A stretch of DNA of 54,441 nucleotides, from the NCBI GenBank assembly GCA_018920245.1, contig JAHLMS010000001.1, forward strand, positions 9,431-63,871. The letters run 5' to 3'. This stretch comes from Candidatus Aenigmatarchaeota archaeon. GTDB taxonomy: Archaea; Aenigmatarchaeota; Aenigmatarchaeia; Aenigmatarchaeales; JAHLMS01. The translations under genes were made by a program, and so were the position numbers. Positions 16,399 through 51,710 of the stretch are shown one piece after another; position 1 is the first letter of the stretch, and every line of letters starts with the position of its first letter. The notes under the pieces are model-generated. The model worked only from the letters and a program-made list of their open reading frames with translations. It did not search any database and was not told the origin of the DNA.

Positions 16399-17691
16399 CT
16401 ATTTCACCCAGCCCCACTTGTCAATCACGGCCTTTAGTTCCTTATGCATCTTGGCATATTCAGATAGTGTTTTTCCTTCCATCACAGCATTGATAGCCTG
16501 TCGCATTGCTGTTGCGCCAGCACGCGTGCCTTTGGGATGACCGTGCACGCCACCGCCTGCCTGGATAATTATATCGTTGCCTAACATGCGCACGAGCGTT
16601 GGTACATGACCTGGGTGCAGACCTCCGCTACAGACAGCAAACACAGGCTTGAGATGCCTCCATTGCTCTGACATACGATGGCCCTTTTCCATCAGAAATC
16701 CTTTTTCTATTTCTTCACCAAGCTCTATAACTTCCTTCTTAGGTCCCTCCATCTTGCCCACGGCAGTTCCTATGTGCAGCTGATCGACGCCTATCAAACG
16801 AGCGATATCGGCTATTACCAACATGGATATACCATGTCTCTTGTTGCGCGTCATTGCGGCATGGCCTGCCCTGTGAGCGTGCAGCACGAGTCGCAATTCC
16901 TCATTCGCATCACGCAACGTCTGTAGACCCGCCCAGCCGACTGTGAGAATGTCAACCATCACGTATTCCCCGCCTGCGTTCTTCACAAACTTCGCGCGGC
17001 GAATCATCTCGTTAGTTTCCGCAGAAACATTTGCCATGTACATCTTTCGTTCGCCAGTCTCAGTTTCAGCCTTGTCTCGTAGTCGTAAGGTTTCTGTTAC
17101 ACGTTCCTCAAACTTGTTGAATGATTGCGAAGTAAGATTTTCATCATCTTTGACTATATCTATTCCGCCACACCATGCCTCATATGCAACCTTAGCATGT
17201 TCACGCCAACCAAGCCCTAATTTTGGTTTAATAATTGTTCCGCATAATGGTCTGTCATAGACGTTCAGTATCTTTCTTACACCTGGTATGCCGTACAGTG
17301 GTCCCTTGAACGATTTCATGAGCCATTCCGGCCAGTGTATATCCTCCAAACGCAAATTATTGAGCTCCTTCATGCCGAAGACATTGCCTGCGACCGAGCT
17401 GAGTATGCAGGGCATGTTGCCGGCCTCGAACAGCTCGCTGGGATAGGCTATGCGAACACAAGGCGGCTTGATATAGAAGACCTTGGCGGCCTTGCGCATA
17501 ATGTTCGGACCTGCTGTCTTCACATCGGTCCATGTTCCTACGCTGGACTCTGCAGCAACGGCCTCGGAGGCCATCCGCATCGACACGCCTTTAGCCGGTT
17601 CAATACGAAACTCACAAACAAGGTCATTCTCTGATGGTTTGTAATTCAAATGAATATAGCCTTTGTAAATGCCTTTCACTATACACAACAC
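16399..17691 (-). CDS. rbcL: Ribulose-1,5-bisphosphate carboxylase/oxygenase large subunit, form III-like
   Basis: GTIIKPKLGL, DIVKDDENL, HAHRAGHAA and GGLHPGH...QAGGGVHGHP are RuBisCO active-site motifs. No small-subunit gene is present. Confidence 0.9.
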   Translation of the reverse strand: MLCIVKGIYKGYIHLNYKPSENDLVCEFRIEPAKGVSMRMASEAVAAESSVGTWTDVKTAGPNIMRKAAKVFYIKPPCVRIAYPSELFEAGNMPCILSSVAGNVFGMKELNNLRLEDIHWPEWLMKSFKGPLYGIPGVRKILNVYDRPLCGTIIKPKLGLGWREHAKVAYEAWCGGIDIVKDDENLTSQSFNKFEERVTETLRLRDKAETETGERKMYMANVSAETNEMIRRAKFVKNAGGEYVMVDILTVGWAGLQTLRDANEELRLVLHAHRAGHAAMTRNKRHGISMLVIADIARLIGVDQLHIGTAVGKMEGPKKEVIELGEEIEKGFLMEKGHRMSEQWRHLKPVFAVCSGGLHPGHVPTLVRMLGNDIIIQAGGGVHGHPKGTRAGATAMRQAINAVMEGKTLSEYAKMHKELKAVIDKWGWVK

Positions 17692-17692
17692 C

Positions 17693-18292
17693 TCATAATA
17701 TGCTTTTAAGCTCGGTTAATGATTTTATGATGTGGTCAGACTTAAAGCTTATTTCCTCACCAAACGTGATGGTCTTCCAACCATACCGTGCGGCAACAGA
17801 AAGGTTCTCTGATTTATTATCGATGAAATAGGCCTCTTGGGTTCCTACCTTCTCTGCGACCATGTCATATGCTGCTGGGTCAGGCTTGCGGAAACCTGTC
17901 TCACCACTGATTATTCTTGCCGAAATATACTTGTCGATACCACTCTTCTGGATCAGATAGCAGGCCCATTCCGCGGGCATGTTGCTGAAAATTATTATTT
18001 CATGTCCTTTGGATCTAAGGTATTCAGCCATCTCGATAAAGTCCGGTGCAAGTTTGAAACTATCAAGAAATTCTTTCTCAAATTGTTCATAGTCCTTTAT
18101 TCCAAGAGCGAGCCAGAATCCAAGTCGATTTAGCTGACCGATAGAGTAGCGATCGTATGGTTCCTTCACAGCCTCGTAGGTGAGGCCGGGAAAGCGTTTT
18201 TGAAGCATAGGGTGCAGGACGTTCTTTATTATATGACCCTCAGTAAAGATAATGCCCATCATATCGAAGATGAGGACAGCCATGTCCTTCAC
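17693..18292 (-). CDS. HAD-superfamily hydrolase-like protein with an atypical motif I
   Basis: The HAD IA layout is present (motif I region LIFDMMGIIF, later IIIFSNMP, FIDNKSENL). It shows start/stop coupling with e2b2 and rbcL. Confidence 0.6.
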   Translation of the reverse strand: MKDMAVLIFDMMGIIFTEGHIIKNVLHPMLQKRFPGLTYEAVKEPYDRYSIGQLNRLGFWLALGIKDYEQFEKEFLDSFKLAPDFIEMAEYLRSKGHEIIIFSNMPAEWACYLIQKSGIDKYISARIISGETGFRKPDPAAYDMVAEKVGTQEAYFIDNKSENLSVAARYGWKTITFGEEISFKSDHIIKSLTELKSIL

Positions 18293-19125
18293 TTCAGAAG
18301 TCTTTTGACATTGCCGGGTGTCATCACGCCTTTTTCTGTTATCACGCGCGTAATCAGATTCCAGGGCGTGATGTCGAAAGCTGGATTGCGCACGCTTGCG
18401 CCATGTAGTTCATGCAACTCACGGTAGACCTCCTTTGGCGGCCGCTCCTCAATTATGAATCTTTTGCGCCTATCCAGCTTGAATGTGGATGCAACAGTAT
18501 AGAACGGTTTCCTGTGCGCCCGCGCGAGCAATGCCATGGGATATGTGCCTGTCTTGTTTATCAGACCTTCCTTCATTCGCAATGCATCACAGCCGACGAT
18601 AACTGCATCGCATTGTGACATGAAAAAGCCGGCTGCAGCATCTGTTATCAGCGTTACAGGAATTTTGACTGCGCGCAACTCCTTAACAGTACGAATGCCT
18701 TGTTCGACGGGCTCGGTCTCAGTCGCAATAACATGTATCTTCTTGCCCTGTGCCCACGCGGCCTTCATAACAGCTAGCGCCTCGCCACTATGACAGTGCG
18801 TCATTATTGTCCAGCCTGGTTTGATAATCTTCGAACCTATTGCTGCAATCCGTTTTGTCGTTGTTTGTAGCTGAGCCAGAAGACGGTCTATTGTTTCGAT
18901 GCTGCGCTCTTTTTTGACTGTTTCGATAACATTATGCAGCGGGACCGCTGTAGGTCGAGCTGCCTCTATTTTATTGCAAGCAACATCGAAGGTTCTACCA
19001 AAACCTTTCTGCTTCGCAAATTGTTTCAAAAATTTCAGGCTCTCAACAGCAATCTGCTTCGCCCCTTGGATATGCAGTGCTTTGAGCTCATGAACGAAAT
19101 CATCGAGTGTAAGCTGTTTTGACAT
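18289..19125 (-). CDS. Ribose-1,5-bisphosphate isomerase (eIF-2B alpha/beta/delta-like, E2b2)
   Basis: IMTHCHSGEAL..., VIATETEPVEQG, VIVGCDAL...GLINKTGTY. The start was chosen at MSKQLTLDD, which avoids overlap with the divergent pcm gene. Confidence 0.8.
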   Translation of the reverse strand: MSKQLTLDDFVHELKALHIQGAKQIAVESLKFLKQFAKQKGFGRTFDVACNKIEAARPTAVPLHNVIETVKKERSIETIDRLLAQLQTTTKRIAAIGSKIIKPGWTIMTHCHSGEALAVMKAAWAQGKKIHVIATETEPVEQGIRTVKELRAVKIPVTLITDAAAGFFMSQCDAVIVGCDALRMKEGLINKTGTYPMALLARAHRKPFYTVASTFKLDRRKRFIIEERPPKEVYRELHELHGASVRNPAFDITPWNLITRVITEKGVMTPGNVKRLLK

Positions 19126-19159
19126 AGACCTTTTATTATCAGCATTCAAAATTAAAGAT

Positions 19160-19828
19160 ATGCCTTTGCCACCACACACAGACATCGAGCTGGCTGAGCT
19201 CATCAAAAGCATCAGGGCGGCCGGCTATCTGAAGAGCGCTTCTGTTGAAAAGGCGCTGCGTGCTGTTCCTCGGCACCTCTTCGTTCCCAAGCAGCTTACC
19301 GCGATGGCATATCGGGATTGTCCACTGAGCATAGGACACGGCCAGACAATATCCCAGCCATCCACGGTTGTGGCGATGACCGAGGCACTACAACCAAAGC
19401 GTGGACAGAAAATCCTTGAAGTTGGCGCGGGCAGCGGCTGGCAAGCAGGCTTGCTCGGTCATATCGTAGGCCCCAAGGGCATGGTGTGGACCATCGAACG
19501 CATAATTGAGCTCGTGAAGATGGCGAAGCACAACCTGAAAGCAGCTGGAATAAAAAACGTCCATGTAATACATGGCGACGGTAGTATGGGTTTGCCAAAT
19601 CATGCACCGTTCGATCGCATAATTGTCACTGCCGCGTGCCCAAAGATACCACCGCTCCTTACAACACAACTGAAACCGAAAGGCAGGATGGTGATTCCTG
19701 TCGGCGACCTCTATTTGCAGAAGATGATACTTTTGGTCAGAAAATCGAAGGATGGGTTTGAGCAGACCGAGCTCGGCAATTTCATGTTTGTGCCGCTAAT
19801 AGGACGATATGGTTTTAAGCCTGTATGA
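19160..19828 (+). CDS. pcm: Protein-L-isoaspartate O-methyltransferase
   Basis: QTISQPSTVVAM, ILEVGAGSGWQA and FDRIIVTAA. Confidence 0.85.
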   Translation: MPLPPHTDIELAELIKSIRAAGYLKSASVEKALRAVPRHLFVPKQLTAMAYRDCPLSIGHGQTISQPSTVVAMTEALQPKRGQKILEVGAGSGWQAGLLGHIVGPKGMVWTIERIIELVKMAKHNLKAAGIKNVHVIHGDGSMGLPNHAPFDRIIVTAACPKIPPLLTTQLKPKGRMVIPVGDLYLQKMILLVRKSKDGFEQTELGNFMFVPLIGRYGFKPV

Positions 19829-25721: not shown

Positions 25722-25842
25722 GGCCCTCGTAGTCTAGCTTGGATAGGACATGAGGTTGCGGGCATTTTTTGCACTTTGCGCAAAACCTGCATTGAAAGGC
25801 AAAAACCTCAGGACCTGGGTTCGAATCCCAGCGAGGGCACCA
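25722..25842 (+). tRNA. tRNA-Arg(GCG) with an intron of about 44 nt at the canonical 37/38 position (about 25761..25804). CCA is encoded.
   Basis: The acceptor is GCCCUCG/CGAGGGC, the D arm GUCU/GGAC, the anticodon stem UGAGG/CCUCA with loop UUGCGG...A, and the T arm CUGGG-UUCGAAU-CCCAG. Confidence 0.75.
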
Positions 25843-31020: not shown

Positions 31021-31666
31021 TGAGCTGTTGTAGTTCTTCCTTTGTCCTTAGGCCAACCAGCACCTTATCGTTCAACAGAATGCTCGGCGCGCTCGTCACA
31101 TTATATTCTGCGGCTACAAGGGAAACCGTGCCTATGTTCATATCAAGAGGTATGGGAATAAGGAGTAGCTGGGGACCGCATGTCTCTTTTATCTCGGCCA
31201 GGACAGCAGACTGTGCCTTCTGAATTGCCATCAGGCTCTCGTCGTAATGGCTATAAAAATATACAAGCGTTTGATAGCTCGCATTGCATGACTCTTTCAG
31301 TGCGATACTGTTCAGCCAGAACTGCAATTGGAGCAATGCGTAATGCCTTTTTTCTTGAACAAGTTCGGGTGCAAACCTGTCAACAGCCTCATAGCGCTCG
31401 ATGAGAAGGCCTTCTTTGTATATCCTGTCATTGAACTCGAAATTGTTCTTTATGGCAGAGTCACAGAATCTGCTATCCATACTGGCGTGCAGTTGATAAT
31501 ACAGTGATGTCAGACGAGCGTCGTTCCATTGAAGGTCTATGTCCATAAGCCTAGAACGCGTAGCAGCCACCCGCTGTTCATCGAGCCAGATACCGAGACT
31601 TAAACCTGCGATGAACACTATCGCTGCAAGTATGCCCGCTTTCCACAGGATGTCCTTCTGCATCAA
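31004..31666 (-). CDS. Membrane-anchored hypothetical protein
   Basis: It has an N-terminal TM helix. Its start overlaps the stop of the GT2 gene by 4 nt. Confidence 0.4.
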   Translation of the reverse strand: MMQKDILWKAGILAAIVFIAGLSLGIWLDEQRVAATRSRLMDIDLQWNDARLTSLYYQLHASMDSRFCDSAIKNNFEFNDRIYKEGLLIERYEAVDRFAPELVQEKRHYALLQLQFWLNSIALKESCNASYQTLVYFYSHYDESLMAIQKAQSAVLAEIKETCGPQLLLIPIPLDMNIGTVSLVAAEYNVTSAPSILLNDKVLVGLRTKEELQQLINCSS

Positions 31667-32916
31667 TTAACCCCCGAATAGCTGCGCCAGCTGTGCTCGC
31701 GCCTGAATAAATAGCGCAGTGATGACTGAAAAAGATTTATTGGAAAGATGGCTATGTATACGCCCAGATAAAGCAGCATGTCAGGTATGCCTTTTAGTCC
31801 GCCTATAGGCTTTTTGACTTCCCTCAGGCTCACACAAACCCATATTATGCTAAGAATGAATATTATGATACCAAAAATCGTGAATATGTCCGGGAGCAAC
31901 ATGAAGTCTGAAAAATACATGGGGTTTGCTCCAGCTGCCACCGCGAACCAGCTGAACTGTACAAAGGTCCATATGGATTTTATCAACATGTAACCGAAAA
32001 CGAACAGGCCGAGCATGGATAGTATATAGCTCGCTGAGAAGAATGGCAGCACAAAATTGCCAAGTGCGCCAAAGCCCTGTTTAAACATAGTGTGTTTGTA
32101 CTTGAGCGTGGTTTGGATGCCGCCGATGTTCCAGCGCATACGCTGTCTCCACCAGTTCCTGAATGTGGCCGGCGCCGTTGTTTCGACTTCTGCACACGTG
32201 GCCATCTTTATAGTCCAACCCGCATGCATTATTCGCCACGCTATCTCAATATCCTCGGTTATGTTATTTTCATCAAACCCACCAAGTTCCCGCAAAACTC
32301 TTGTTCGATAGATGGATAACGGGCCTGGCGTAACATAAATGGAATCCAAGAATTCCAGAAGCTTGCGTGCCCAGACTATCATTATGTATTCTATCCTCTG
32401 GAGGCGCTGCACGATGTTGCGTGGCTCACGAACGAAAATGGAAGTGGTCACGGCAGCTACGTTCGGTTCTGAAAAGAACGGCACTGCCTTGATTAGCGAA
32501 TCCGGTGCTGGTCTGCTATCGCTATCTATGCATGCGACGAGTTCTCCTTTCACCTCTTTCAAACCAGCATTGAGCGCCGAGGCCTTCCCACCATTTTGTT
32601 TCTGTATCAGCTTGACGCCCTGAAAGCCCTTGACAACCGCTGCAGTTCCATCCGTGCTGCCGTCATCTACTACCAAGATTTCTAGCTTATCGGGAGGATA
32701 TTGCAGCCTTTTTATGGCCTCCAACGTGCCGGCTATAGTCTTCTCTTCATTGTACGCAGGCACTATTATAGAAACAGTTGGCAGAACGGTCATGACAGGC
32801 GCAGTTCGGAGTTGTGTGCGATTGCGCACATACAACAGAAAGAACATAAAGAACATGTAGAGGGATATGGCTGCAAACAAAAGATAGGCGATGTCTACCC
32901 ATAGCACTGTGGACAT
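31663..32916 (-). CDS. Family 2 glycosyltransferase, membrane-embedded processive type
   Basis: IIVPAYNEE, VVDDGSTDGT, CIDSDS and QRMRWNIGG (the QxxRW motif), plus multiple C-terminal TM helices. Confidence 0.8.
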   Translation of the reverse strand: MSTVLWVDIAYLLFAAISLYMFFMFFLLYVRNRTQLRTAPVMTVLPTVSIIVPAYNEEKTIAGTLEAIKRLQYPPDKLEILVVDDGSTDGTAAVVKGFQGVKLIQKQNGGKASALNAGLKEVKGELVACIDSDSRPAPDSLIKAVPFFSEPNVAAVTTSIFVREPRNIVQRLQRIEYIMIVWARKLLEFLDSIYVTPGPLSIYRTRVLRELGGFDENNITEDIEIAWRIMHAGWTIKMATCAEVETTAPATFRNWWRQRMRWNIGGIQTTLKYKHTMFKQGFGALGNFVLPFFSASYILSMLGLFVFGYMLIKSIWTFVQFSWFAVAAGANPMYFSDFMLLPDIFTIFGIIIFILSIIWVCVSLREVKKPIGGLKGIPDMLLYLGVYIAIFPINLFQSSLRYLFRREHSWRSYSGVN

Positions 32917-33542: not shown

Positions 33543-35777
33543 CTAAGATGCTGCCGTGATTGTCGGGCTCTCGATGGTTCCGCTGACTGTCACAGCTGGC
33601 ACGTTCTGCGCCTTGATCTCAGTCTGTTTCAACTGGATCACGCGCGCGGCCAGGTCAGTGTCAGCCGCTTCCCATCCTGCGATGAGCACTGCTGTCTTTC
33701 CGGTAGCGAAAGCGTTCGGGAAGACTTTTATCAGTGCTGTGTTCGCAGTCAGGCCAGACGATTCACCGCATGCTGGATATGTCTTGCCCAACAGCTCTGC
33801 AGCCAGTTTGTTGACGCACGGACCGCCTATAACGAACAGGTCGCTGCTTGTCTTGACATTGGCTATTCCAGCCTCATTGTCAAGCATAGCAACGTCTGCC
33901 GTTACCTCGACTGGTTCCTTGGTCTTTACCTCTCCTGTGCCACCAGCTGTCGTCTCACGACCGAATATCAGGTCGCCATAGAGCTGCGTCTTCGGCACCT
34001 TCAGCTCAACACCAGACGAGCTGGCTCCCAAGAAGACCGTGCCGTAGGGCGAAGCGAATCCTCCGCTTCTCGACTTCGGCGTAGTGCCTCCGTAAGCCAC
34101 ACCGATTCCTGGCGTCACTGTGTTGTTGTACGAGACATATGTCGGGTTACCGTCTTTAACGGTAGGTCCAACCTCTGTCACGTTCGCCAGTGTTCCGACT
34201 GTGGTGTTGGATGCGAAGTCATACTCTATGTACCAGTCGCTGGTTGTTATACCGCTCTCGGACAGCGTCGGCTCCCTTATTCTCAACACGAGGTCATCGT
34301 TCGCAAGATTGTCTGTACCGAGCGTCTTGTTGAGTATGGCGAAGCTGAGCGCGCCCTCGGTCAGTGTTATCGATGGTGGTCCAGTAAAGGTTGTCCAGCC
34401 TCCGGTCGAATTCAGGTATACCCAGGCGCCGTTGCTCGCGTCATATGCTACTGTGTCTGCGAAGCCTGAACCTGTGTCGATGACCTTGACAGCATTGCCT
34501 GTTGTCGGGTCTGTAGCAGCTATCTGTAAGCCGCTCTCTGCGACAACACCATTGCCGTTGAAGTCACCAACCCTCGGCGTCACGGATATCTTGTGCCCGG
34601 TGCCACTCTCCAGTCCAGCGAACTTCACTGTGAAGAAGTTGTCCGGCGAAGTTATCGCTGTGCCAGTCTTCAGTGCCGGGTATGTTCCGGTTGGGCCTGT
34701 TCTTGGTTGTATATATTGCAAGGTTATGTTCCTTATCGTGCCAGCTGCACCGACACCGATGCTTGCCTGCCAGTCTTGGTTCGGTGCCTCGAGCATCTGA
34801 CCGTTTGTCAGTTTGTATGAAGTTGCTCCTACCAATATCTCTGCCCAGCCGCCGCCAGTCACGACCGCAGCGTTCTTGACATAAACAGGTATGTTCTTAC
34901 CGCCGATTGTCACGTACTCCGTAGAACCGGAGTTGACGGTAACACGTTGCCCGTTTACATCAATACCGCAAACGACTGTACTGCCTGTTCCTGTACCTAC
35001 GCTCAACAGTTCGACTGTGTATTCGCCTACTGTCTGCTTCTCGCCCACGTTCAGGAAGACTGAGCCGCCTGTTGCAGACAGCTTTACTTCCGTGGTCGAG
35101 GACGATGTCACGACGTAGTCCTTGCCCAAGAACTTTATTGTCTTGCCTGTAAGGTTTGTGGTTCCTACTGGCACATCAGTCTCGAATCTCAACTGATAAA
35201 AGATATAGTGTGTCGAGTCAGACGGTGCCTTTACCATCAAGTCCTTATAGGCATTCTCATATGTTCCTGAGCCGCTCGCATCGTCCGCATACAGCAGATA
35301 ACCGTTCGATGACGTGTCGTTCGCTCCTGTTATTCCGATAACTTCATAGTACTTGTATTCGGTTCCGCCTATGGTTATGCTACCGGATTGCAGGAACGAT
35401 GCTGTTCGTCCACCGTAGGCCGGTGCTTGTATGATGAACGGCGACGTACTTACGTCGAAGTCCCTCGTCTTTGCTGTTGTGTTTAGTGGTTCCATGCGGA
35501 AAGTCACGCCGTCAGCGCCCGCAGCTACCGTTGTCGTCACCGGAACTGATTTCTCCTCGAAGGAGAATGCTGCCATCTTCGCGGCGATGCCAATCGCACC
35601 TGCCACATCTGACGGCTTTGCATCATTTCCGATCACGAAAACAGGGAAGCTCGTTGCGCTAGCGAGTCCGTATATTCCGCTGACGTTACTGACTGTCGCT
35701 GCCAAAGCTGGTGCCGTAGCTGCCAAAGTTCCCATCAGGGCCGATCCAGCAAGGGCTGCAATTTTTCTGAATTGCAT
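33543..35777 (-). CDS. S-layer protein (Methanococcales/Thermococcales-type N- and C-terminal domains)
   Basis: It has a signal peptide ending APALAATV, then SFPVFVIGNDAKPSDVAGAIGIA. The C-terminus reads DLFVIGGPCVNKLAAELL...AVLIAGWEAADTDLAA. The ATG at 35777 is preceded by GGAGGT. Confidence 0.8.
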   Translation of the reverse strand: MQFRKIAALAGSALMGTLAATAPALAATVSNVSGIYGLASATSFPVFVIGNDAKPSDVAGAIGIAAKMAAFSFEEKSVPVTTTVAAGADGVTFRMEPLNTTAKTRDFDVSTSPFIIQAPAYGGRTASFLQSGSITIGGTEYKYYEVIGITGANDTSSNGYLLYADDASGSGTYENAYKDLMVKAPSDSTHYIFYQLRFETDVPVGTTNLTGKTIKFLGKDYVVTSSSTTEVKLSATGGSVFLNVGEKQTVGEYTVELLSVGTGTGSTVVCGIDVNGQRVTVNSGSTEYVTIGGKNIPVYVKNAAVVTGGGWAEILVGATSYKLTNGQMLEAPNQDWQASIGVGAAGTIRNITLQYIQPRTGPTGTYPALKTGTAITSPDNFFTVKFAGLESGTGHKISVTPRVGDFNGNGVVAESGLQIAATDPTTGNAVKVIDTGSGFADTVAYDASNGAWVYLNSTGGWTTFTGPPSITLTEGALSFAILNKTLGTDNLANDDLVLRIREPTLSESGITTSDWYIEYDFASNTTVGTLANVTEVGPTVKDGNPTYVSYNNTVTPGIGVAYGGTTPKSRSGGFASPYGTVFLGASSSGVELKVPKTQLYGDLIFGRETTAGGTGEVKTKEPVEVTADVAMLDNEAGIANVKTSSDLFVIGGPCVNKLAAELLGKTYPACGESSGLTANTALIKVFPNAFATGKTAVLIAGWEAADTDLAARVIQLKQTEIKAQNVPAVTVSGTIESPTITAAS

Positions 35778-35957
35778 CTGCTTTACCTCCATTTCCAAAT
35801 TTTGTTTTCGTTTTTGTTTAAACCTCGCATGTTGTAACAGACTTTTCTGTCCGCAACATCATGCAAGGTTTTGCACGAGTTGCTCGTGCTGGTTTTGAAA
35901 TTTCAACTTGGCAACACGCATTGCAACCTGCTAGCGGCTGCCTGTGCTGAAATTTGT

Positions 35958-38494: not shown

Positions 38495-38603
38495 GCCTCG
38501 GTGGCTCAGTTGGTAGAGCGGTCGCCTCGTAGGGCATGACGGCCTTCGGCCGTCTGTTCATGTGAGCGACAGGTCGCGAGTTCGATTCTCGCCCGAGGCT
38601 CCA
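38495..38603 (+). tRNA. tRNA-Thr(CGU) with a 33-nt intron at 37/38 (about 38532..38564). CCA is encoded.
   Basis: The acceptor is GCCUCGG/CCGAGGC with U73, the D arm GCUC/GAGC, the anticodon stem GUCGC/GCGAC with loop CUCGUA...A, and the T arm GCGAG-UUCGAUU-CUCGC. The intron core hairpin is GACGGCCUUCGGCCGUC. Confidence 0.8.
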
Positions 38604-40138: not shown

Positions 40139-40248
40139 GGGCCGGTGGTCTAGTGGTAAGGCATTGATGATGCTTCGCATCATCATCCCATATTGACGTC
40201 ACCCTGACACGGTGGAGGTCGAGAGTTCGAATCTCTCCCGGCCCACCA
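40139..40248 (+). tRNA. tRNA-Val(GAC) with a single intron of about 35 nt in the D-loop (about 40159..40193) and an uninterrupted anticodon loop. CCA is encoded.
   Basis: The acceptor is GGGCCGG/CCGGCCC, the anticodon stem-loop is UCACC-CUGACAC-GGUGG, and the T arm is GAGAG-UUCGAAU-CUCUC. The D region is split by an insert with the hairpin GAUGAUGCUUCGCAUCAUC. Confidence 0.7.
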
Positions 40249-41543: not shown

Positions 41544-42473
41544 TTACTTGCCCAATGCCGTCAACGACAGCTGCTGGTCAATATAATAACCGTAGCTGGC
41601 GTTCACACCAACTGAAAATGGTTTCTTGACATTGACCCCAGACGTCACGTTGACATCGCAGATTATCGAAGCTGTGTTGCCGACAATCTCAACATTCTCG
41701 TAGCAAGTCGGGTCTATTATAACAAGGTCTGTGCCGAAGCCTGTCAAACCAACGATTATATCATTCAGCGCATCCTCAGGTATGCTGAACTTGCTTGTGT
41801 CGGTTCCATCGGCGTTTATGCCTGTAACGTTGTTGTATCTATAAACAACTCCTTTCTCGGTGTTAGTGAAAGTGATCTGCAGCGTGAATGTTTCTCCTGG
41901 ACCTGATACAACTACAGGGTCAGGTGCCACTGTGACTGCCATACTGACCGGACCATTGGTAACCGACCAGCTTGACTTTTCCAGAGTTTCGCCTCTATTT
42001 TGCGCTGCTGTCGCTTCGGACTGCGGGTAGACAATTATCTGACCAAATGCTGTTGTCACGTAGTCATAATATACCCTGCCTGTGAGCGTGTATATTCGTG
42101 ATTGCCCGCGCGGTAACGTTGGACCTGTTAATGTCCAAGTCTCTATCTGCATATCAGCAGGGATGTTTCTGAGCGGGTCAGCTGGCCGCAGATTCTTATC
42201 GAACTTGCGCACTATGTTACCAGGTGTCCAGTCATCCGCACCTATAAGAAGTATGCCTCCGTTGCCTACGGTTACAATCTGCTGACCTTGATTCTCTATA
42301 CCAAGCGAAACCTGAGTCTTGGAACCGCTGTATACTTGCGCTTGGGACGCAGTGAAGTTTGTTATTTCGAGCCCGTTGCCCGAGATTATCGTTGGCTGAC
42401 CACCTAGGCAACCAGCCACTATAACAGCACCTAGAATAAGCATTGCGAGTTTTGCTTTTGAATCAAAAAACAT
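41544..42473 (-). CDS. Lipobox-bearing secreted beta-rich protein, paralogue family member (envelope cluster gene 7)
   Basis: The N-terminus is ...LILGAVIVAGCLGG and the C-terminal signature is NASYGYYIDQQLSLTALGK. AGGAGGA lies upstream of the ATG. Confidence 0.55.
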   Translation of the reverse strand: MFFDSKAKLAMLILGAVIVAGCLGGQPTIISGNGLEITNFTASQAQVYSGSKTQVSLGIENQGQQIVTVGNGGILLIGADDWTPGNIVRKFDKNLRPADPLRNIPADMQIETWTLTGPTLPRGQSRIYTLTGRVYYDYVTTAFGQIIVYPQSEATAAQNRGETLEKSSWSVTNGPVSMAVTVAPDPVVVSGPGETFTLQITFTNTEKGVVYRYNNVTGINADGTDTSKFSIPEDALNDIIVGLTGFGTDLVIIDPTCYENVEIVGNTASIICDVNVTSGVNVKKPFSVGVNASYGYYIDQQLSLTALGK

Positions 42474-42485
42474 TACATCATCCTC

Positions 42486-43340
42486 CTATTTTGTTTTAAC
42501 CTTGACAGTGAAAGAATTGTCGAGGTCGTATTTATAGTTTGCTGTAATACTTAGCGTGCCGGTGCTTATCGGCCTGTCTGTTGTTGTTTGGAATGTGCAT
42601 GTAAGCGAAGGTGCCACCTTATTGATGAAGTTAAGGTCACGATCGAGTATTAGCTCATTTCCTTTCGGCTTGTAGCCGTCACAATCTCCTTTCAAGTTAT
42701 TGGGAAGCGTTATTCTTATCGAACCCTTGGGCAATTTGTCTATGAAACCTCCCCCGGTGTCTGCAATATCGATATACATGTACACCGTAGTGTTGTTCTC
42801 CCATGGAAGTGGATCACTGAAGCGCAGCGTTATTGTTACAGGATTTGTCGAGGCGGTTGTTGTGCCTGCCATTGCTGCCAGCGTGCCGGTCTGCTCGCGT
42901 GTGTAGTATTCCGTGCTTGATAGTACATTGATATCCTGGATTATTGTGGCATTGCTCTCCCAGCTGACCTTGAACTTTATGTTGCAGTCGCGCTCGAATT
43001 GCGTTGTTTGTGAAGACCATCTCCATGTCCATGTCTGTGTACGATTTTCCCGCAGCTCATCAAAATGTTTTGTCGCATCACCACTGAACAGGCACTGATC
43101 ATAGACATTTATATTGACATTCCAGAGCCTGTTTGTGGTTTGTTTGTTTGTGATGTTCCATGTGACCGATATATTGCGACCACCCTTCACTTCTGCAGGA
43201 AATGCAACTACTTCCACATTCATGTCTGGATTTTCAACATGTGTTTCACCAGGTATACCGACCTGTTGCCTGCCAAAAGGTAGCTGAACGCAGGCAGCCA
43301 CAACAAGAATGGCAAAAACTAGCAATGCTACTTTTTGCAT
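42486..43340 (-). CDS. Secreted or lipobox-like beta-rich protein, paralogue family member (cluster gene 6)
   Basis: The N-terminus is MQKVALLVFAILVVAAC and the C-terminal signature is ITANYKYDLDNSFTVKVKTK. Confidence 0.55.
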   Translation of the reverse strand: MQKVALLVFAILVVAACVQLPFGRQQVGIPGETHVENPDMNVEVVAFPAEVKGGRNISVTWNITNKQTTNRLWNVNINVYDQCLFSGDATKHFDELRENRTQTWTWRWSSQTTQFERDCNIKFKVSWESNATIIQDINVLSSTEYYTREQTGTLAAMAGTTTASTNPVTITLRFSDPLPWENNTTVYMYIDIADTGGGFIDKLPKGSIRITLPNNLKGDCDGYKPKGNELILDRDLNFINKVAPSLTCTFQTTTDRPISTGTLSITANYKYDLDNSFTVKVKTK

Positions 43341-43375
43341 GCCTATAATGCTTCAAATAGACAAATAAATCTATG

Positions 43376-44332
43376 CTACGGCTTTATGTCTACGCTTAGT
43401 TCTCTTATCAAGTCATACCTGTATTCCAGACTGGAGAAAACATAATATTCCTTTGTTTCTGGGACATCCGATTCAGATGGCATCTTGAAACCGCAACGTA
43501 TCTCGAAGGTCTTCTTATCAGCACCTACGAGATCAATCGTCCTCTTGTTCTTGTAGAGCTTGTAGCCTGGTTCTGTCCCGGCATCTATGAACTCATCTCC
43601 ACAGTTGTCCTGCAACGTCCACGAATCCGGTGCCTTCAATATGAGCTTCTTTTCAGGTACCGCAAGATAGGTTCCAGCACCTTTGTTCTGCACCTGTATC
43701 GATATGTAGAGCGTGCTGTCGGTGCGTGCGGGCATAGCGCTAACCGCCGCCATGTATATCTTTATCGGTCCGCGACCGATATCGGTTGTGGGCGTGTATG
43801 TCGGTGCCTGGCCGGCTGTCTGCAGTGCACGCAGCCTTGTAGCGCTTATAACCTCAACACTAGTCGAGGTTGAAGCTGTGAAATAGTAGTTGACTTTGTA
43901 TTTGACAGGACACCTTCCTGGTAGGTTTCCGAGCTGTGCTGCAGAAGGTGCAACAAGGACTACATCGAGCGGCTTTGACTGACCGGGTCCCATCTTTCCA
44001 AGATTTTGTATGTACTTGCTGCCTAACTTTGTCCAACCAGTTATTTTTGATTCATCACACAAGCCCCAGTCGTACAGCTCTGCATTGACAGACGGTACAG
44101 TATTAATGTCATCCACGTTCTTTACCTCAAACGAGACCGTGAACTCATCGCTGGCGAGCACGGGTGGTGTAGGCACTATGTTTTCGTTCTGTACGACAAT
44201 TATGTCCTCGGGTGCCTCTCTCACTTCGCCCGCTTGTCCGAAAAGGCTCTGGAACGGACCGCCCACACAACCTGCAACAAAAATTGTTATGAGCACAGCA
44301 AACAATAAACCGAATATTTGCTTTCTTGCCAT
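43376..44332 (-). CDS. Lipobox-bearing secreted beta-rich protein, paralogue family member (cluster gene 5)
   Basis: The N-terminus is ...VLITIFVAGCVGG and the C-terminal signature is SSLEYRYDLIRELSVDIKP. Confidence 0.55.
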   Translation of the reverse strand: MARKQIFGLLFAVLITIFVAGCVGGPFQSLFGQAGEVREAPEDIIVVQNENIVPTPPVLASDEFTVSFEVKNVDDINTVPSVNAELYDWGLCDESKITGWTKLGSKYIQNLGKMGPGQSKPLDVVLVAPSAAQLGNLPGRCPVKYKVNYYFTASTSTSVEVISATRLRALQTAGQAPTYTPTTDIGRGPIKIYMAAVSAMPARTDSTLYISIQVQNKGAGTYLAVPEKKLILKAPDSWTLQDNCGDEFIDAGTEPGYKLYKNKRTIDLVGADKKTFEIRCGFKMPSESDVPETKEYYVFSSLEYRYDLIRELSVDIKP

Positions 44333-44371
44333 TTTCTCACTCTTCTCTATTCATTTTGCAAATATAAAACC

Positions 44372-46543
44372 TTATCCTCCTATGGGTGCCTTAATCATTG
44401 GCAGCTGTATCTCTGAAACAGCTGTGTATGTGTAGTCTACAGTGCCGCGGAAGCCTAGCGTCTTGCTTTCCAGGTCTTCCAACGTGTATGTGAACCTGAA
44501 GGCGTATGTCGCAGTCTTGTCTGGTTGCAGGTTGTTGATGTTGCAGCTCACGGTCTTGTAAAGAATGTTACCAACAGTGTCTATGCTATCTGTACAATTG
44601 CTCAAACCGCTCGGCGCACCCACATTCCTTATGCCATCAAGGGTTATGCCTGTGAGCGTCGAAGGCAACCAAAGCTTGAGCGTGCCTCCAGTTACATTGC
44701 CCCTGCCTGTGTTCGTTATCGATATCCGGCCGAATGCCTCTTCTCCTGAACGCAACGGCTGGTCCTGCACATAGATGCCAACCTTCACAGGACCGCCGCT
44801 GTACCGCGACTCTGAATTGAACAGCTTTATCTGATTGTTGAGCAACTTCCGGTTGAACACATCTTTGTTCATAACTTCGATATTATCCATGCTCACGTTC
44901 GATGTGTAGCTGAAGCTGTAGCTTAATGGGAGTATAATTGTCCAGTCTGCATAGCTGTATATAAGTATGCCTGGGTCAGGACAGTAGGTTTTTACCTCTG
45001 TGGGGTCCGTGCATGTCCTTTTCTTGAAAACATAACAGTCAGACTGGCAATTACCAATCGCGTCCTTGCAGTCGCCCTCACAGAGGTTAGGATATTCAGA
45101 CGTATCAACAGGTGCAAAGCAGTCGCATATCCTCATGGTATTGGCCCAACCAGAATTATAATCGCCTTTCTTGCCACACTGGAATGTCAGCGACTTGACA
45201 TCACCAGGTGGACTGTTTGGCCTTTCGCTCTTCCATTCGCATGTGCTGCCAGAGTTCTTGCCTGTATCAGCGCCTGTGCATGATGTGAACTCACAGGCAT
45301 CAAAGGCTAGAGTCACACGACCCCAATCTGGGTGTGCTACAGAAATGTTCCTTGGGTCTATGAGCTTCAGCTGTCCGAACGTGACAGCGATGTTCCGTGC
45401 AGTGAAACAGCCCTGGTTCTCAAGCTTGACGCTGCCTATTAGCGGGATTGTTGGATCGATGTTCGGCACTGCTTCGACATAGTTTATAGCCTTGAACTCG
45501 GTCTGTTCTATAGCCTTAACAGTACCACCTTCGATAAGTTTTGCATTAGCTTCCTGTTTTCGCCTTTCCTGCTCGGCATAATAGCATGAGGGACAAGTCA
45601 ACAACATTTTGGCATCCGATAGGGACTGCCCTACTGACGAGAAAACCTCTCCCATGGGCTGTCCAATTGTTGAAATGGCGGTATTGACCTGCGGCCACCA
45701 AGCACCGAATACTGAGCTACCTATTACGCCTGTATATTGATATGAGAATGCCATTATTGCTAAGAAGAGAATTATTAATCCTATGTATGGCCTGCCCTCA
45801 GGACCTGCGAAGTAGCCCATGATTATGCCAAGGCCGAATATAAGTGACAAAACCCATCCTAAAGCTGCTGTCGTCGGTCCCAAGACCATTTGGATAACAG
45901 GTATCGCTCCTGCTAATGCCAGACCGAGGAAGACTGCATTGGCCCTGTTCTTGCTCTGCTCTCCGGGCGCCCAACCTGTGGGTTTTGTGGATTTTTCGAA
46001 AATATAAATCTCTACCTTTCGGCCGACCTCCACTGGTATCTTGAGCGGCAGATTGACATAATAGGCTGCAGTTAGCAAGAACAAGGCTATAGCGGGGTTG
46101 ACTATTGCCAACGTTATGCCACCACCAACAAGAACGAAGAATATCAAAGATCCGTATATTCCAAGACTTAACCACGGCTTGCCTTTTGCAAATAAACCAA
46201 GTACTATGAAAAGCGGCACGAAGATGAGGATAGAGACTATGCTACCAATGAGCGCGTCGAATGTGCCCTGTAGAATGAAGTAAAAAACTATCGCTATTGC
46301 GAGGCCAAGAATCGTGCGTACCCAAGCGCTCGCTGCCTTGTGTGGTTCATCCTCGCGGTAACTTCCTGGCAACATGAAATAGCCGACAAAGAGCGTTGCC
46401 AGGCTGAGAATAGGATATATCATATAAAACTGCCATGCGACCAGCACTATTGCGAGCACCAGGATGAAGTCGCGCAGTATCATCGCGGCTATGACACCAC
46501 CATGTATCTTCATCGGCTCTTGGTACAATGCTTCATAATCCAT
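44372..46543 (-). CDS. Large polytopic membrane protein (about 9-10 TM) with a Cys-rich extracytoplasmic C-terminal half related to the cluster paralogues (cluster gene 4)
   Basis: The N-terminal ~330 aa are hydrophobic helices. The C-terminal ~390 aa have many Cys (CEFTSC, CDCF, CEGDCKDAIGNCQSDC) and end VDYTYTAVSEIQLPMIKAPIGG. AGGTG lies upstream of the ATG. Confidence 0.6.
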   Translation of the reverse strand: MDYEALYQEPMKIHGGVIAAMILRDFILVLAIVLVAWQFYMIYPILSLATLFVGYFMLPGSYREDEPHKAASAWVRTILGLAIAIVFYFILQGTFDALIGSIVSILIFVPLFIVLGLFAKGKPWLSLGIYGSLIFFVLVGGGITLAIVNPAIALFLLTAAYYVNLPLKIPVEVGRKVEIYIFEKSTKPTGWAPGEQSKNRANAVFLGLALAGAIPVIQMVLGPTTAALGWVLSLIFGLGIIMGYFAGPEGRPYIGLIILFLAIMAFSYQYTGVIGSSVFGAWWPQVNTAISTIGQPMGEVFSSVGQSLSDAKMLLTCPSCYYAEQERRKQEANAKLIEGGTVKAIEQTEFKAINYVEAVPNIDPTIPLIGSVKLENQGCFTARNIAVTFGQLKLIDPRNISVAHPDWGRVTLAFDACEFTSCTGADTGKNSGSTCEWKSERPNSPPGDVKSLTFQCGKKGDYNSGWANTMRICDCFAPVDTSEYPNLCEGDCKDAIGNCQSDCYVFKKRTCTDPTEVKTYCPDPGILIYSYADWTIILPLSYSFSYTSNVSMDNIEVMNKDVFNRKLLNNQIKLFNSESRYSGGPVKVGIYVQDQPLRSGEEAFGRISITNTGRGNVTGGTLKLWLPSTLTGITLDGIRNVGAPSGLSNCTDSIDTVGNILYKTVSCNINNLQPDKTATYAFRFTYTLEDLESKTLGFRGTVDYTYTAVSEIQLPMIKAPIGG

Positions 46544-46554
46544 TAAAACACCTA

Positions 46555-47004
46555 TTACTCGAAGAATGGCGGCTTCTTAACCTCTTCTTCCTCCTCTTCT
46601 TTCTCTTCTTCCTCTTTTTTGGGTTTCCTTACTTCTATGACTATGTGCTTGACATAGTGCTCCTCGGCCTTTTGCATCAGCTCATCAGCCGATGGAATAA
46701 TACTCCTAAATCCCAAAAGTAGCAGCGCAGCACCGAGGAGCGGGAAGCCGAAAATCGCTACCAGCCCACCCACAAGAACGAAAATGAAAAGTTCGAGCCA
46801 TCTGGCCTTCAGAAGTTCCTTGCCAATTCCTGTCAAGTGCTCGCGTTTGAGCACGTAAACTGGTACTTTGGCCTTTTCCGACCCTTCTTTCGTAGGTGCG
46901 GCTGGCCGGGGTGGTACACCATGGCGAGACATATGCTGCTCGTAGTTCGATACATCAGATACATCAACTTTCTCCTCACAGATTGGACATTTAATAATCG
47001 GCAT
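46555..47004 (-). CDS. C2H2/Zn-ribbon N-terminus, two TM helices and an acidic Glu/Lys tail (cluster gene 3)
   Basis: MPIIKCPICEEKV...YEQHMSRH, then LELFIFVLVGGLVAIFGFPLLGAALLLLGF, then KKEEEEKEEEEEEVKKPPFFE. Confidence 0.5.
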   Translation of the reverse strand: MPIIKCPICEEKVDVSDVSNYEQHMSRHGVPPRPAAPTKEGSEKAKVPVYVLKREHLTGIGKELLKARWLELFIFVLVGGLVAIFGFPLLGAALLLLGFRSIIPSADELMQKAEEHYVKHIVIEVRKPKKEEEEKEEEEEEVKKPPFFE

Positions 47005-47090
47005 TGCTATCGTTTACAAATAGCACTCACGGGGTTAAAAAGTTATCATGTGCTGGGCCATTTTTATTTCACGTACATCAAAATGCTAAA

Positions 47091-47204
47091 TTAAAGGCTT
47101 CGCACAGGCCAGCCGCCTGGCGGCTTTTTCATACCGCAGTTAGGGCACATATTCTTGTAAATTTCAATGGCGTTCCTGCAACGCACACAATAGCTCTCAG
47201 ACAT
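47091..47204 (-). CDS. 37-aa Zn-ribbon protein (cluster gene 2). Below the ORF-track cutoff.
   Basis: My own translation is MSESYCVRCRNAIEIYKNMCPNCGMKKPPGGWPVRSL. GAGGTG lies 6 nt upstream of the ATG. Confidence 0.45.
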   Translation of the reverse strand: MSESYCVRCRNAIEIYKNMCPNCGMKKPPGGWPVRSL

Positions 47205-47213
47205 CCTAACACC

Positions 47214-48011
47214 TCATGTAAAATAAATGATTATCTCGGCGCTGTCAATGGTGTATCTTGTGCCAGCCGGGGCTGATATCTTGATATAGTTGGTGCCCAC
47301 GACAAACTTGTCAGGCGTGAAGTCCTTGACAATGTTCATGCTAGTGCCCATGTATATGTTCTCATTATTCAATGTTACATTCAGCTGGCCTGTGCCCTCC
47401 CTGCGCTTGACATTCATCACCAGCCTGCCCTTTGTTGCAAGCGCCACATCCTTGCTCTCAAGCGTGAAGTTGAATGATTTCTCCAAAGCACCCTTCCAGT
47501 TCACGGTCGCGTTCGCGGTGAACTTGTAAATTGTCGGCGCCCAGAAGCGCCAGCCACTGGACTCAGCCTTTATCTCGAGCAAGTTCTCTTCTTTCAATAA
47601 ACCTTGACCGAAGACAATCGAATGGTCACCCGGATAGGCATAATCATTATACAGCTCCTGTCCGTTCAAGGCTACGATGAGCCTGCCGTAGAGATTCGAA
47701 TCGTTTACATGCAGTATCACATGGCCACCTGTCACGGATGCCGGGTCAGATATCAAGAAGCTGTAGGCCTTGTCCTCGCCAGAGAGCAGGCCGCGGCTGA
47801 CGGTACCGGAGATGTTCGCAACAGGCAGCTCAGCTGAAACGTAGCCTACTGAAAAGTTGCCACTGATGGGTATGTGCCTATACTCTTCTGTAAGCCCACC
47901 GCCAACATGAGGCTGCGGCGAAGGCGGTACTGTGACCACTGCGCCGAAAGCCAGCAGCAGGCCAGCAAATATCAGCACTGCTACAATAAGGACCGGAATG
48001 AACTCAGGCAT
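47214..48011 (-). CDS. N-terminally anchored beta-rich extracytoplasmic protein (cluster gene 1)
   Basis: It has a TM helix (FIPVLIVAVLIFAGLLLAFGAVV), then a Pro-rich linker and a beta-rich domain. I prefer the ATG at 48011 over the TTG at 48017. Confidence 0.5.
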   Translation of the reverse strand: MPEFIPVLIVAVLIFAGLLLAFGAVVTVPPSPQPHVGGGLTEEYRHIPISGNFSVGYVSAELPVANISGTVSRGLLSGEDKAYSFLISDPASVTGGHVILHVNDSNLYGRLIVALNGQELYNDYAYPGDHSIVFGQGLLKEENLLEIKAESSGWRFWAPTIYKFTANATVNWKGALEKSFNFTLESKDVALATKGRLVMNVKRREGTGQLNVTLNNENIYMGTSMNIVKDFTPDKFVVGTNYIKISAPAGTRYTIDSAEIIIYFT

Positions 48012-48049
48012 GTGCAATATTAAATACAGGCATGCATAAAAATGTTAGC

Positions 48050-50785: not shown

Positions 50786-50927
50786 TGGTGGACCGGGCGG
50801 GATTCGAACCCGCGAACTCTACCAGACGGGGCAGAAACGACCTTCAGTCGTCATTCTGTTTGCCAAGGTAGCGTCAGTGCAGCAAGACAGCCTTAGGCCG
50901 TCATTCGTTTCCACTAGACCACCGGCC
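50786..50927 (-). tRNA. tRNA-Ala(GGC) with two introns: about 30 nt in the D-loop and about 36 nt at 37/38. CCA is encoded.
   Basis: The acceptor GGGCCGG/CCGGUCC carries the Ala identity pair G3:U70. The anticodon stem is CUACC/GGUAG with loop UUGGCA..., and the T arm is GCGGG-UUCGAAU-CCCGC. The intron hairpins are GACGGCCUAAGGCUGUC and CAGAAUGACGACUGAAGGUCGUUUCUG. Confidence 0.7.
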
Positions 50928-50962
50928 CGTGAACGAATTGTTTTCGCAGAATATTTAAATGC

Positions 50963-51070
50963 TGGTGGGCCGGGCAAGATTCGAACTTGCGATATCCACC
51001 TTTCAAGGCAATGACGTGCTTTGCACGTCTACCTGTAAGGGTGGCGTCTTAACCGCTGGACCACCGGCCC
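50963..51070 (-). tRNA. tRNA-Val(UAC) with an intron of about 32 nt at 37/38. CCA is encoded.
   Basis: The acceptor is GGGCCGG/CCGGCCC, the anticodon stem is CCACC/GGUGG with loop CUUACA..., and the T arm is GCAAG-UUCGAAU-CUUGC. The intron hairpin is GACGUGCAAAGCACGUC. Confidence 0.75.
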
Positions 51071-51581: not shown

Positions 51582-51710
51582 TGGTGGGCCGGAAGAGATT
51601 TGAACTCTTGACCACCAGTGTTTACACTTTTTGGAACGTTGTCGGACTGACGACCGCCGGTCGTCCAGTTTTATAAGACTGGCGCTCCAACCTGGCTGAG
51701 CTACCGGCCC
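51582..51710 (-). tRNA. tRNA-Ile(UAU) with an intron of about 51 nt at or near 37/38. CCA is encoded.
   Basis: The acceptor is GGGCCGG/CCGGCCC with A73, and the D arm is GCUC/GAGC. The anticodon stem CCAGU...ACUGG has loop CUUAUA (anticodon at plus coordinates 51673..51675). The T arm is AAGAG-UUCAAAU-CUCUU, and the intron hairpin is GACGACCGGCGGUCGUC. Confidence 0.7.

Follow-up and report, generated by a model that had tools for sequence, protein, structure and literature searches.

A syntenic cluster of predicted envelope proteins in Aenigmatarchaeota joins a polytopic membrane protein to lipoprotein-like paralogues of its ectodomain

The gene cluster between pelota and endoQ

The window analysed here is a 54,441-nucleotide (nt) stretch of a Candidatus Aenigmatarchaeota archaeon genome (GenBank assembly GCA_018920245.1, contig JAHLMS010000001.1, positions 9,431 to 63,871). 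Within it, seven co-directional minus-strand open reading frames (ORFs), all with an ATG start, fill positions 41544-48011 between the genes for pelota and endoQ. A sequence-only reading of the window had described them as a seven-gene envelope cluster. The seven products were labelled g1 to g7 from the pelota side to the endoQ side and are listed here with the two parts of g4. AF2 denotes AlphaFold2 models and hhalign denotes profile-profile alignment.

47214-48011, minus strand: g1, 265 amino acids (aa) from the ATG at 48011
47091-47204, minus strand: g2, 37 aa, putative four-Cys zinc (Zn) ribbon (CxxC...CxxC), predicted cytoplasmic
46555-47004, minus strand: g3, 149 aa, C2H2-like site, transmembrane (TM) hairpin and poly-Glu tail
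44372-46543, minus strand: g4, 723 aa, 9-TM membrane domain and ectodomain
45662-46543, minus strand: g4 membrane domain, residues 1-294 (from hydropathy and conserved columns)
44372-45526, minus strand: g4 ectodomain, residues 340-723 plus stop codon (from AF2 strands and hhalign)
43376-44332, minus strand: g5, 318 aa, lipobox VAGC, Cys22, two beta-sandwich domains
42486-43340, minus strand: g6, 284 aa, lipobox VAAC, Cys17, full-length paralogue of g5
41544-42473, minus strand: g7, 309 aa, lipobox VAGC, Cys21, more distant paralogue

The tight packing described from the sequence alone was confirmed. The intergenic gaps are 9, 86, 11, 39, 35 and 12 nt in order from g1 to g7, the end of g7 lies 5 nt from the convergent endoQ, and the start of g1 lies 20 nt from the divergent pelota. 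The ribosome-binding sites that had been noted were also seen, as GGAGG before g7 and AGGTG before g2 and g4, and an oligo-T tract immediately follows the g7 stop codon. The proposed single operon agrees with this packing but is unproven, given a TATA-like box in the 86-nt g2-g3 gap and the insertions found in relatives. TATA-like boxes were located about 30 nt upstream of g1, g3, g5 and g6, and more than one transcript for the cluster is possible. A TTTTTATG box was observed approximately 25-30 nt 5' of the g1 ATG, within the pelota coding sequence (window 48011-48032). Together with the 20-nt start-to-start spacing, it suggests that the g1 and pelota promoters are leaderless, divergent and overlapping. 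As had been noted, the locus is separate from the surface-layer (S-layer) locus, whose S-layer gene lies at 33543-35798, and no further paralogues of the cluster proteins were found elsewhere in the window.

Architecture of the cluster proteins

Relatives of g4 were collected to examine the cluster products as families. A word-indexed search found seven, and an exhaustive hidden Markov model (HMM) search returned 325 cluster representatives at E <= 1e-3; a subset of 116 reached E <= 1e-30. Gene neighbourhoods were mapped with HMMs of every cluster gene for 16 loci obtained from look-ups and a GTDB scan and for 50 metagenome loci; they come from soils, sediments and GTDB genomes and carry numbers such as L001 below. 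None of the seven window products scored above threshold in Pfam or NCBIfam. Pfam scans of orthologues (12 of g1, 29 of the g4 family and 29 of the lipoproteins) and NCBIfam scans of the same 29 g4-family members returned mostly Zn ribbons or C2H2 fingers and weak CARDB matches. Five profiles searched against PDB sequences matched nothing better than E 0.1, and we found no description of the cluster in the literature.

The g4 protein has nine hydropathy peaks and 17 Cys, which agrees with the approximately 9-10 TM helices and the Cys-rich ectodomain that had been predicted for it. By the positive-inside rule its N-terminus is inside and its C-terminus outside, with K/R-rich even-numbered loops alternating with short uncharged loops. 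The motifs GYFxxPxSY and GRPYxG are conserved in cytoplasmic loops and FGxWWPQ on the extracellular side just past TM9; a CPSCYY linker, GGTVK, YSGGPVK and a C-terminal Y-x-Y strand are conserved as well. The ectodomain consists of the CPSCYY linker followed by two beta-sandwich domains with a Cys-rich insert, and Cys 422, 435, 473, 511, 650 and 667 are conserved. In the AF2 model (mean predicted local distance difference test score, pLDDT, of 67), its strands span residues 345-456 and 528-716, with a pLDDT of 75-92 for the C-terminal sandwiches. One protein from a metagenome-assembled genome at NCBI is 99% identical to g4. The membrane domain had no Pfam, NCBIfam or PDB match in scans of 29 diverse family members, a test for an internal repeat was negative, and no invariant acidic or His residue was detected in it. 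At the family level, the g4 membrane domain is an orphan, as is g1.

The layout of g4 is reminiscent of AglB/STT3 in that the N-terminal part is polytopic, a WW motif directly follows the final TM helix and the extracytoplasmic C-terminus is beta-rich. In addition, a CxxC motif is located at the membrane surface beside the Cys-rich domain, and the AglB C-terminal domains (3vu1, 2zag) are among the structural matches described below. An envelope membrane enzyme, either GT-C/oligosaccharyltransferase-like or DsbB/VKOR-like by virtue of the CPSC motif, could account for these features. Motif tests largely refute this explanation, which we consider highly improbable. g4 has 9 TM helices rather than 13, it carries WWPQ (FGxWWPQV) instead of WWDYG, and it lacks a conserved DxD, the acidic residues of the first loops being variable (REDEP, NEQHL, YTNQP). 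Many family members have NPxG where g4 has CPxC, Pfam and NCBIfam gave no STT3 (PF02516), DsbB or VKOR match, and the structural similarity to AglB is that of a generic sandwich with a TM-score of at most 0.28.

The g5, g6 and g7 proteins each start with a signal peptide that has a hydrophobic core and ends in a lipobox (FVAGC, VVAAC and IVAGC, respectively). The three lipobox signal peptides picked out by the sequence-only reading all fit the published archaeal motif [L/V/I][A/S/T/V/I][G/A/S]C (PMC12462473). A strict lipobox was present in 44 of 49 g5 orthologues, 53 of 59 g7 orthologues and 9 of 43 g6 orthologues; in nearly all of the non-strict g6 orthologues the h-region is followed by a Cys within SLC or SMC, and most g6 orthologues have SLC. 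The g6 orthologues of loci L018-L067, a clade with four lipoproteins, mostly have Leu or Met at position −1, and g5 and g7 of the same loci are canonical. On these grounds, g5-g7 are predicted to be lipidated. Like the lipoprotein substrates of AliA/AliB in Haloferax volcanii (PMC12462473), they combine a Sec-type signal peptide with a lipobox containing a conserved Cys, and a distant g4 relative adjoins an AliA_AliB gene. They differ in that lipidation is predicted from sequence, that most g6 orthologues carry SLC, and that their mature domains fall outside the characterised lipoprotein families. Scans covering most ORFs of the 54-kb window found no AliA_AliB gene. Lipoproteins have been reported to be prevalent in DPANN archaea (PMC12462473).

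A C-terminal beta-strand signature shared by four products had been noticed before, and comparison of family alignments (40-59 orthologues per gene, signal peptides removed) with hhalign demonstrated that it reflects true homology. The g5 alignment matched those of g6 (99.8%, E 4e-28) and g7 (97.1%, E 8e-11), g6 matched g7 (97.4%, E 1e-11), and the g4 ectodomain matched g5 (97.6%, E 3e-12) and g6 (97.4%, E 1e-11) in alignments that extend right to the C-terminus. The g4-g7 comparison was weak on its own (E 9e-4); cross-matches of single-gene HMMs in distant loci are consistent with paralogy across g4 to g7. The g4 ectodomain and g5-g7 are one paralogous family of tandem beta-sandwich modules. 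The AF2 model of g5 (pLDDT 83.6, predicted TM-score, pTM, 0.70) is all-beta, with two beta-sandwich domains that are each closed by a strand of 23-25 residues (140-162 and 293-317). A similar motif in the middle of the proteins had been taken to imply duplicated beta-sandwich modules. In the g5 model this motif is the last long strand of the first sandwich and the C-terminal motif is the closing strand of the second; the duplication within g5 found weak support (42%, E 3e-4). Besides the lipobox Cys, g5 has four invariant Cys residues. Each ectodomain has conserved Cys pairs, which implies that it lies outside the cytoplasm.

The earlier description of the products as unrecognisable holds with respect to curated families but was slightly too strong. 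CARDB (PF07705) was matched by 6 of the 29 lipoprotein orthologues, including g7 orthologues (best E 1.1e-5), DUF11 and NPCBM_assoc were matched by two each, and there were a few NEW3 and LPAM matches. The window proteins themselves gave no match to Pfam E-set models at E <= 1 except for DUF11 in g4 (E 0.11). Foldseek aligned the g5 model with a probability of 1.0 to tandem Ig-like sandwiches at TM-scores of 0.2-0.28, including integrin alpha legs, the C-terminal barrels of TG2/FXIII, SdrG and clumping factor ClfA, the C-terminal domain of AglB and a viral DUF11 protein. Searches of g5 and the g4 ectodomain against the PDB, and of g5 against BFVD, yielded only generic sandwiches of this tandem Ig-like type. 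The lipoproteins and the g4 ectodomain are remote E-set/CARDB-like modules. They resemble the CARDB, DUF11 and NEW3 domains of surface proteins in their two Ig-like sandwiches; unlike these, the window proteins score below the Pfam threshold, and the long terminal strand with its Y-x-Y and the Cys pattern are specific to the cluster family. A donor-strand fibre of the TasA/CanA/thread type was considered and rejected: there was no PF12389 match, TasA, AbpA and thread were not among the top 50 Foldseek PDB matches, and the predicted lipid anchor argues against a released subunit.

Lipoprotein genes beside a gene for a polytopic membrane protein are the usual layout of a binding-protein-dependent transporter, and one g4 homologue, P0017 (NCBI MFQ6009708.1), is named 'MFS transporter' at NCBI. 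Solute uptake with g4 as the permease and g5-g7 as substrate-binding lipoproteins nevertheless appears improbable. The lipoproteins are beta-sandwiches, not alpha/beta binding proteins, and they are paralogous to the ectodomain of the membrane protein itself. The cluster holds no ATPase or second permease gene, and the g4 membrane domain is without an internal repeat and without conserved charged residues. Because none of the 29 family members matched MFS or any other transporter family, the name given to P0017 looks unfounded. ABC/TRAP uptake specifically was rejected, as an adjacent ATPase or second permease was not found at any locus and the lipoproteins are beta-sandwiches. With no catalytic-looking invariants, no match to a catalytic family in Pfam or NCBIfam and no transporter features, a structural or adhesive role is favoured.

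The g1 protein has a single hydropathy peak at residues 4-22, an N-terminal TM anchor, and contains no Cys. The anchor is followed by two homologous beta-rich domains that are predicted to be extracellular; the internal duplication was clear in hhalign (D1 with D2, 96.9%, E 1e-10), which found g1 to be unrelated to the g4-g7 family. The start of the protein, MP[E/D]F[I/V/L/M]P (window 47985-48011), was retained in 41 of 46 orthologues while the rest falls to 23-40% identity, and this N-terminal motif matches no known sorting signal. No Pfam or PDB family was found for g1, with 12 orthologues scanned against Pfam; one orthologue had a weak match resembling a carbohydrate-binding module. A type IV pilus or archaellum was rejected since the MPEFIPVL start has neither a charged leader nor a G/A cleavage site, and T2SSE/T2SSF genes are missing from the cluster and the window region, occurring only beside distant relatives (L017, L068).

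Of the two Zn-ribbon proteins proposed earlier, g2 has the four Cys of a putative ribbon. It matched Pfam Zn_ribbon_3 at E 4e-4 and 20.1 bits, below the cut-off of 27, and all four Cys of its knuckles (C6/C9 and C20/C23) are retained in L001 and L004. The site of g3 is C2H2-like instead, C-x2-C-x14-H-x3-H (C6, C9, H24, H28), ahead of a TM hairpin at about residues 69-105. The C2H2 definition used for comparison is C-x2-4-C-x12-H-x3-5-H; g3 had no Pfam match, and those of its orthologues that were checked at the N-terminus lack the site. g3 matched a broad g4-family profile at E 5e-5. Conversely, the g3 profile matched within the g4 ORF in L010 and L016, and the same fusion was seen in most of an 849-aa clade. 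Depending on the locus, g3 stands as a gene of its own or is included in the g4 ORF, with the fused form in most relatives. These matches indicate that g3 is a detached N-terminal module of g4, many relatives of which have CxxC, DZR or C2H2 domains at the N-terminus. g2 was found in 6 of 64 related loci (L001, L002 with the same protein as L001, L004, L005, L009 and L015) and was essentially absent from the 50 metagenome loci. Being limited to the close relatives of the window plus L015, it is a clade-specific accessory. The term seven-gene unit was overstated, given the rarity of g2, the origin of g3 as a g4 module and the variable genes, occupying up to 4.3 kb, that are inserted between g1 and g4 in relatives.

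The order of a cytoplasmic N-terminal Zn module, TM segment and extracellular domain is shared with TcaA-type proteins, DZR-TM-ectodomain proteins and CdpC. NCBIfam TcaA and Pfam DZR matches fall on the N-termini of g4 relatives; the similarity is confined to the Zn module, and the membrane and outer domains are unrelated. Another reading is transmembrane signalling or coupling, in which the ectodomain complex would sense an external cue or contact and the cytoplasmic Zn fingers would have nucleic acid, or else a protein of the cytoskeleton or of cell division, as their ligand. C2H2 arrays or double Zn ribbons are present at the cytoplasmic N-terminus of many family members (for instance zf-C2H2 at E 3e-14 in P0027), and the Zn ribbons of Haloferax CdpC provide a precedent for a membrane tether, in that case for FtsZ1 (bioRxiv 10.64898/2026.07.16.738847). 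Against it, the Zn modules are the least conserved part of the system, being absent from the inspected g3 orthologues and clade-specific in the case of g2, and no output domain was recognised. We regard signalling as quite unlikely.

Conservation, distant relatives and a proposed surface complex

The gene order is conserved in relatives, as the sequence-only reading would have it. The core order g1, g4, g5, g6, g7 was present between pelota and endoQ in all 64 related loci with enough sequence, down to 24% g4 identity. The general arrangement is a divergent pelota, g1, up to 4.3 kb of variable genes, g4, g5, g6, g7, in some cases a second g7, and a convergent endoQ. A g1 orthologue was located upstream of g4 in 12 of the first 16 loci (L003, L007, L008 and L015 stop short of a complete g1) and in 39 of the 50 metagenome loci. 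g5 directly follows g4 at less than 200 nt in 35 of 35 informative metagenome loci, and a g6 orthologue was found at every locus that reaches its position. Two g7 copies (g7 and g7') occur in 24 of 24 metagenome loci reaching endoQ, a larger sister clade, and the full set with both flanks was recovered from 18 loci. Insertions lie between g1 and g4, with a single case inside the g4-g7 block (L013). Identity to the window proteins was 24-46% for g4, 29-70% for g5 and 23-70% for g1, versus 46-78% for pelota. Exposed envelope proteins that remain under selection typically show such faster evolution than flanking housekeeping genes.

In many relatives a large co-directional gene (400-1070 aa) was observed between g1 and g4, for example at L019:6013-7914 and at the same position in L014, L029, L040, L043, L060 and L061. 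One member has a transglutaminase-like core (Transglut_core, E 3e-7). This gene is missing from the window.

The flanks complicate the use of synteny. Along with pelota and endoQ, a methyltransferase and an arginine decarboxylase are syntenic neighbours, and since the flanks are conserved too, synteny alone is no proof of functional coupling. The proteins could be independent envelope components that are kept together by a frozen gene order and form no joint machine, a scenario that possible internal promoters and the variable g1-g4 insertions would also fit. We consider this unlikely. More strongly than by synteny, coupling is supported by g4-g7, where no gene was lost or rearranged, and by the g3-g4 fusions, which tie both genes together. 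The g4-g7 paralogues stand head to tail with gaps of 11-39 nt, were never separated or lost in the 35 of 35 and 24 of 24 informative loci, and are interrupted only in L013. That the four ectodomain modules are kept as distinct orthologous groups with no losses suggests non-redundant subunits and not interchangeable adhesins.

No relatives were found in IMG/VR viral contigs. With the housekeeping flanks fixed as well, an origin from a mobile element or virus is not supported. The VARTIG modules of Thermococcales (PMC8416519) comprise an Ig/CARDB-domain protein and small membrane proteins of unknown function, and the cluster is similarly an archaeal, operon-like module in which secreted Ig-like (CARDB-related) proteins are combined with membrane proteins. 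Hypervariability, an island-borne location and horizontal mobility set VARTIG apart; the cluster is inherited vertically, has a constant composition and is syntenic, with the same order and flanks in 64 loci. It also has no counterpart of the large arCOG07710-like protein and no DNNxxxGG C-terminal motif.

The g4 family extends beyond Aenigmatarchaeota. A distant branch (E 1e-23 to 1e-30, 900-1500 aa) retains the last TM helices, SRPYxG, FGQWWPT, the first sandwich and an SPVKLS motif, and is extended by long N-termini, basic or with Zn fingers, and by additional modules at the C-terminus. Two of seven longer or distant members that were scanned have peptidoglycan (bacterial cell-wall) hydrolase domains at the outer end: Glucosaminidase in P0137, and Glucosaminidase plus Amidase_3 in the related P0151. 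No such fusion occurs in Aenigmatarchaeota. The hydrolase domains confirm that the C-terminus of the g4 family works outside the cell. Four neighbourhoods were inspected for the two distant members P0128 and P0137, all in other archaea; the genomes are clearly archaeal, as judged by tRNA-Thr_ED, a split RpoB and a tRNA-intron endonuclease. There, the g4 relative is tail to tail with an AliA_AliB gene and a T2SSF-T2SSF-T2SSE pilus cluster, preceded by genes for ThrRS and adenylate kinase (L017:10001-18289; L068:10001-20159, which is the P0137 locus; L069). A word-indexed search with P0128 gave one further match only.

Taken together, we favour a fixed-composition, heteromeric, membrane-anchored surface complex with a structural or adhesive function, not an enzyme or transporter. 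This reading is tentative, with a probability of roughly 45%. g4 would be the platform, with nine TM helices, a cytoplasmic N-terminus and a disulfide-stabilised tandem CARDB-like ectodomain displayed outside. g3 would serve as its detachable cytoplasmic end, contributing a Zn finger, a TM hairpin and an acidic tail. g5, g6 and g7 would be Sec-exported, lipid-anchored paralogues of the ectodomain that pack against the g4 ectodomain and g1 in a fixed stoichiometry. The cytoplasmic Zn modules of g2 and g3 may link the complex to an intracellular partner. As a structural element it would either shape the envelope under the S-layer or serve in adhesion. Organisation of the envelope below the S-layer and contact with another cell are both compatible with the evidence, and a role in host contact is possible.

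Several observations weigh against this proposal. With pelota and endoQ flanking the cluster in every locus, its order may partly be the frozen synteny of one lineage. TATA-like boxes inside the g2-g3 (86 nt), g4-g5 and g5-g6 gaps would allow separate transcription. The g4 membrane domain was modelled at a pLDDT of 35-80, such that a transporter or enzyme fold stays structurally possible, and the inspected neighbourhoods of distant g4 homologues in other DPANN archaea contain no g1 or g5-g7 relatives. The analysis showed the gene order, the paralogy, the topology signals, the beta-sandwich fold, the conservation and the g3-g4 fusions, whereas the physical assembly of the complex, the lipidation, the localisation and the function are what we infer.

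The surface-assembly or attachment apparatus put forward by the sequence-only reading is likewise something we infer, with the hydrolase domains on two distant g4 relatives as its one hint. Most of the abundant DPANN archaea are uncultured, and physical contact with other cells is presumed to be necessary for them. A more specific alternative is that the cluster encodes the host-contact or host-attack apparatus of an episymbiont, in which beta-sandwich adhesins on a g4 membrane base would bind and perhaps breach the host envelope. The organism belongs to DPANN, CARDB/DUF11-type folds are typical of adhesins, the cluster proteins outpace housekeeping genes in evolution, and cell-wall hydrolase domains are present on the two distant g4-family proteins, with an archaeal neighbourhood for P0137. 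However, the cluster is strictly syntenic, vertical and absent from viral contigs, and shows no hypervariability, copy-number expansion or mobile context, which argues against a classical host-range adhesin. The hydrolase fusions are confined to two of the seven scanned longer or distant members, outside Aenigmatarchaeota, and the hosts and lifestyle of the lineage are unknown (PMC8407114). We consider a dedicated host-contact apparatus somewhat unlikely. A broader version is also doubtful. Here the g4 family, archaeal and so far seen only in DPANN, would be a cell-contact machine with a 9-TM platform, Zn fingers inside and an exchangeable outer end (the lipoprotein set in Aenigmatarchaeota, a fused hydrolase in other DPANN), which attaches to or opens the host envelope.

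The building blocks of the proposed surface complex are familiar, namely lipobox lipoproteins, Ig-like sandwiches and Zn ribbons, and uncharacterised envelope clusters specific to one lineage are common in archaea. What is new is a polytopic protein whose ectodomain is paralogous to the three to four lipoproteins encoded behind it, along with an orphan, two-domain anchored protein (g1) and detachable Zn modules, an arrangement that a whole DPANN phylum retains. Two new protein families emerge, the g4 membrane domain and g1, with no detectable relatives in curated libraries. To our knowledge, almost nothing is known about DPANN envelope proteins, and the cluster is among the few envelope loci that an entire DPANN phylum shares in fixed form, with parts defined well enough for direct testing. 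It also supplies predicted archaeal lipoproteins from outside Euryarchaeota, useful for work on lipoprotein biogenesis. If the cell-contact machine were real, it would give the long-sought molecular basis of contact between DPANN archaea and their hosts; if the cluster encodes only a structural envelope component, it would add to archaeal 'dark matter' in a useful but ordinary way.

Other features of the window

An archaeal 23S rRNA match on the minus strand (7319-11377) is 4059 nt long versus 2987 nt for the model, with approximately 1.07 kb inserted; no 16S or 5S gene adjoins it. An ORF within this match (8584-9252, minus strand) encodes a LAGLIDADG_1 homing endonuclease (E 1e-16), which points to an rRNA intron. 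Six tRNA genes were found by Rfam and none by ARAGORN, at 25723-25839, 38495-38600, 40139-40245, 50789-50928, 50966-51070 and 51585-51710. At 105-140 nt each, they probably carry introns, which are common in tRNAs of DPANN and other archaea.

Genes of a nucleotide-salvage (AMP) pathway are grouped at 13476-19212 on the minus strand, and an S-layer gene and a glycosyltransferase gene lie further along:

14198-14929 and 13476-14234, minus strand: AMP/thymidine phosphorylase, two overlapping ORFs (AMP pathway group)
16399-17691, minus strand: form III RuBisCO (AMP pathway group)
18289-19212, minus strand: IF-2B-family ribose-1,5-bisphosphate isomerase (AMP pathway group)
31663-32916, minus strand: family-2 glycosyltransferase, near the S-layer gene
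33543-35798, minus strand: S-layer protein, 751 aa (S_layer_C PF05124, E 4e-15)

The split of the phosphorylase into two ORFs may be due to a frameshift or an assembly error.

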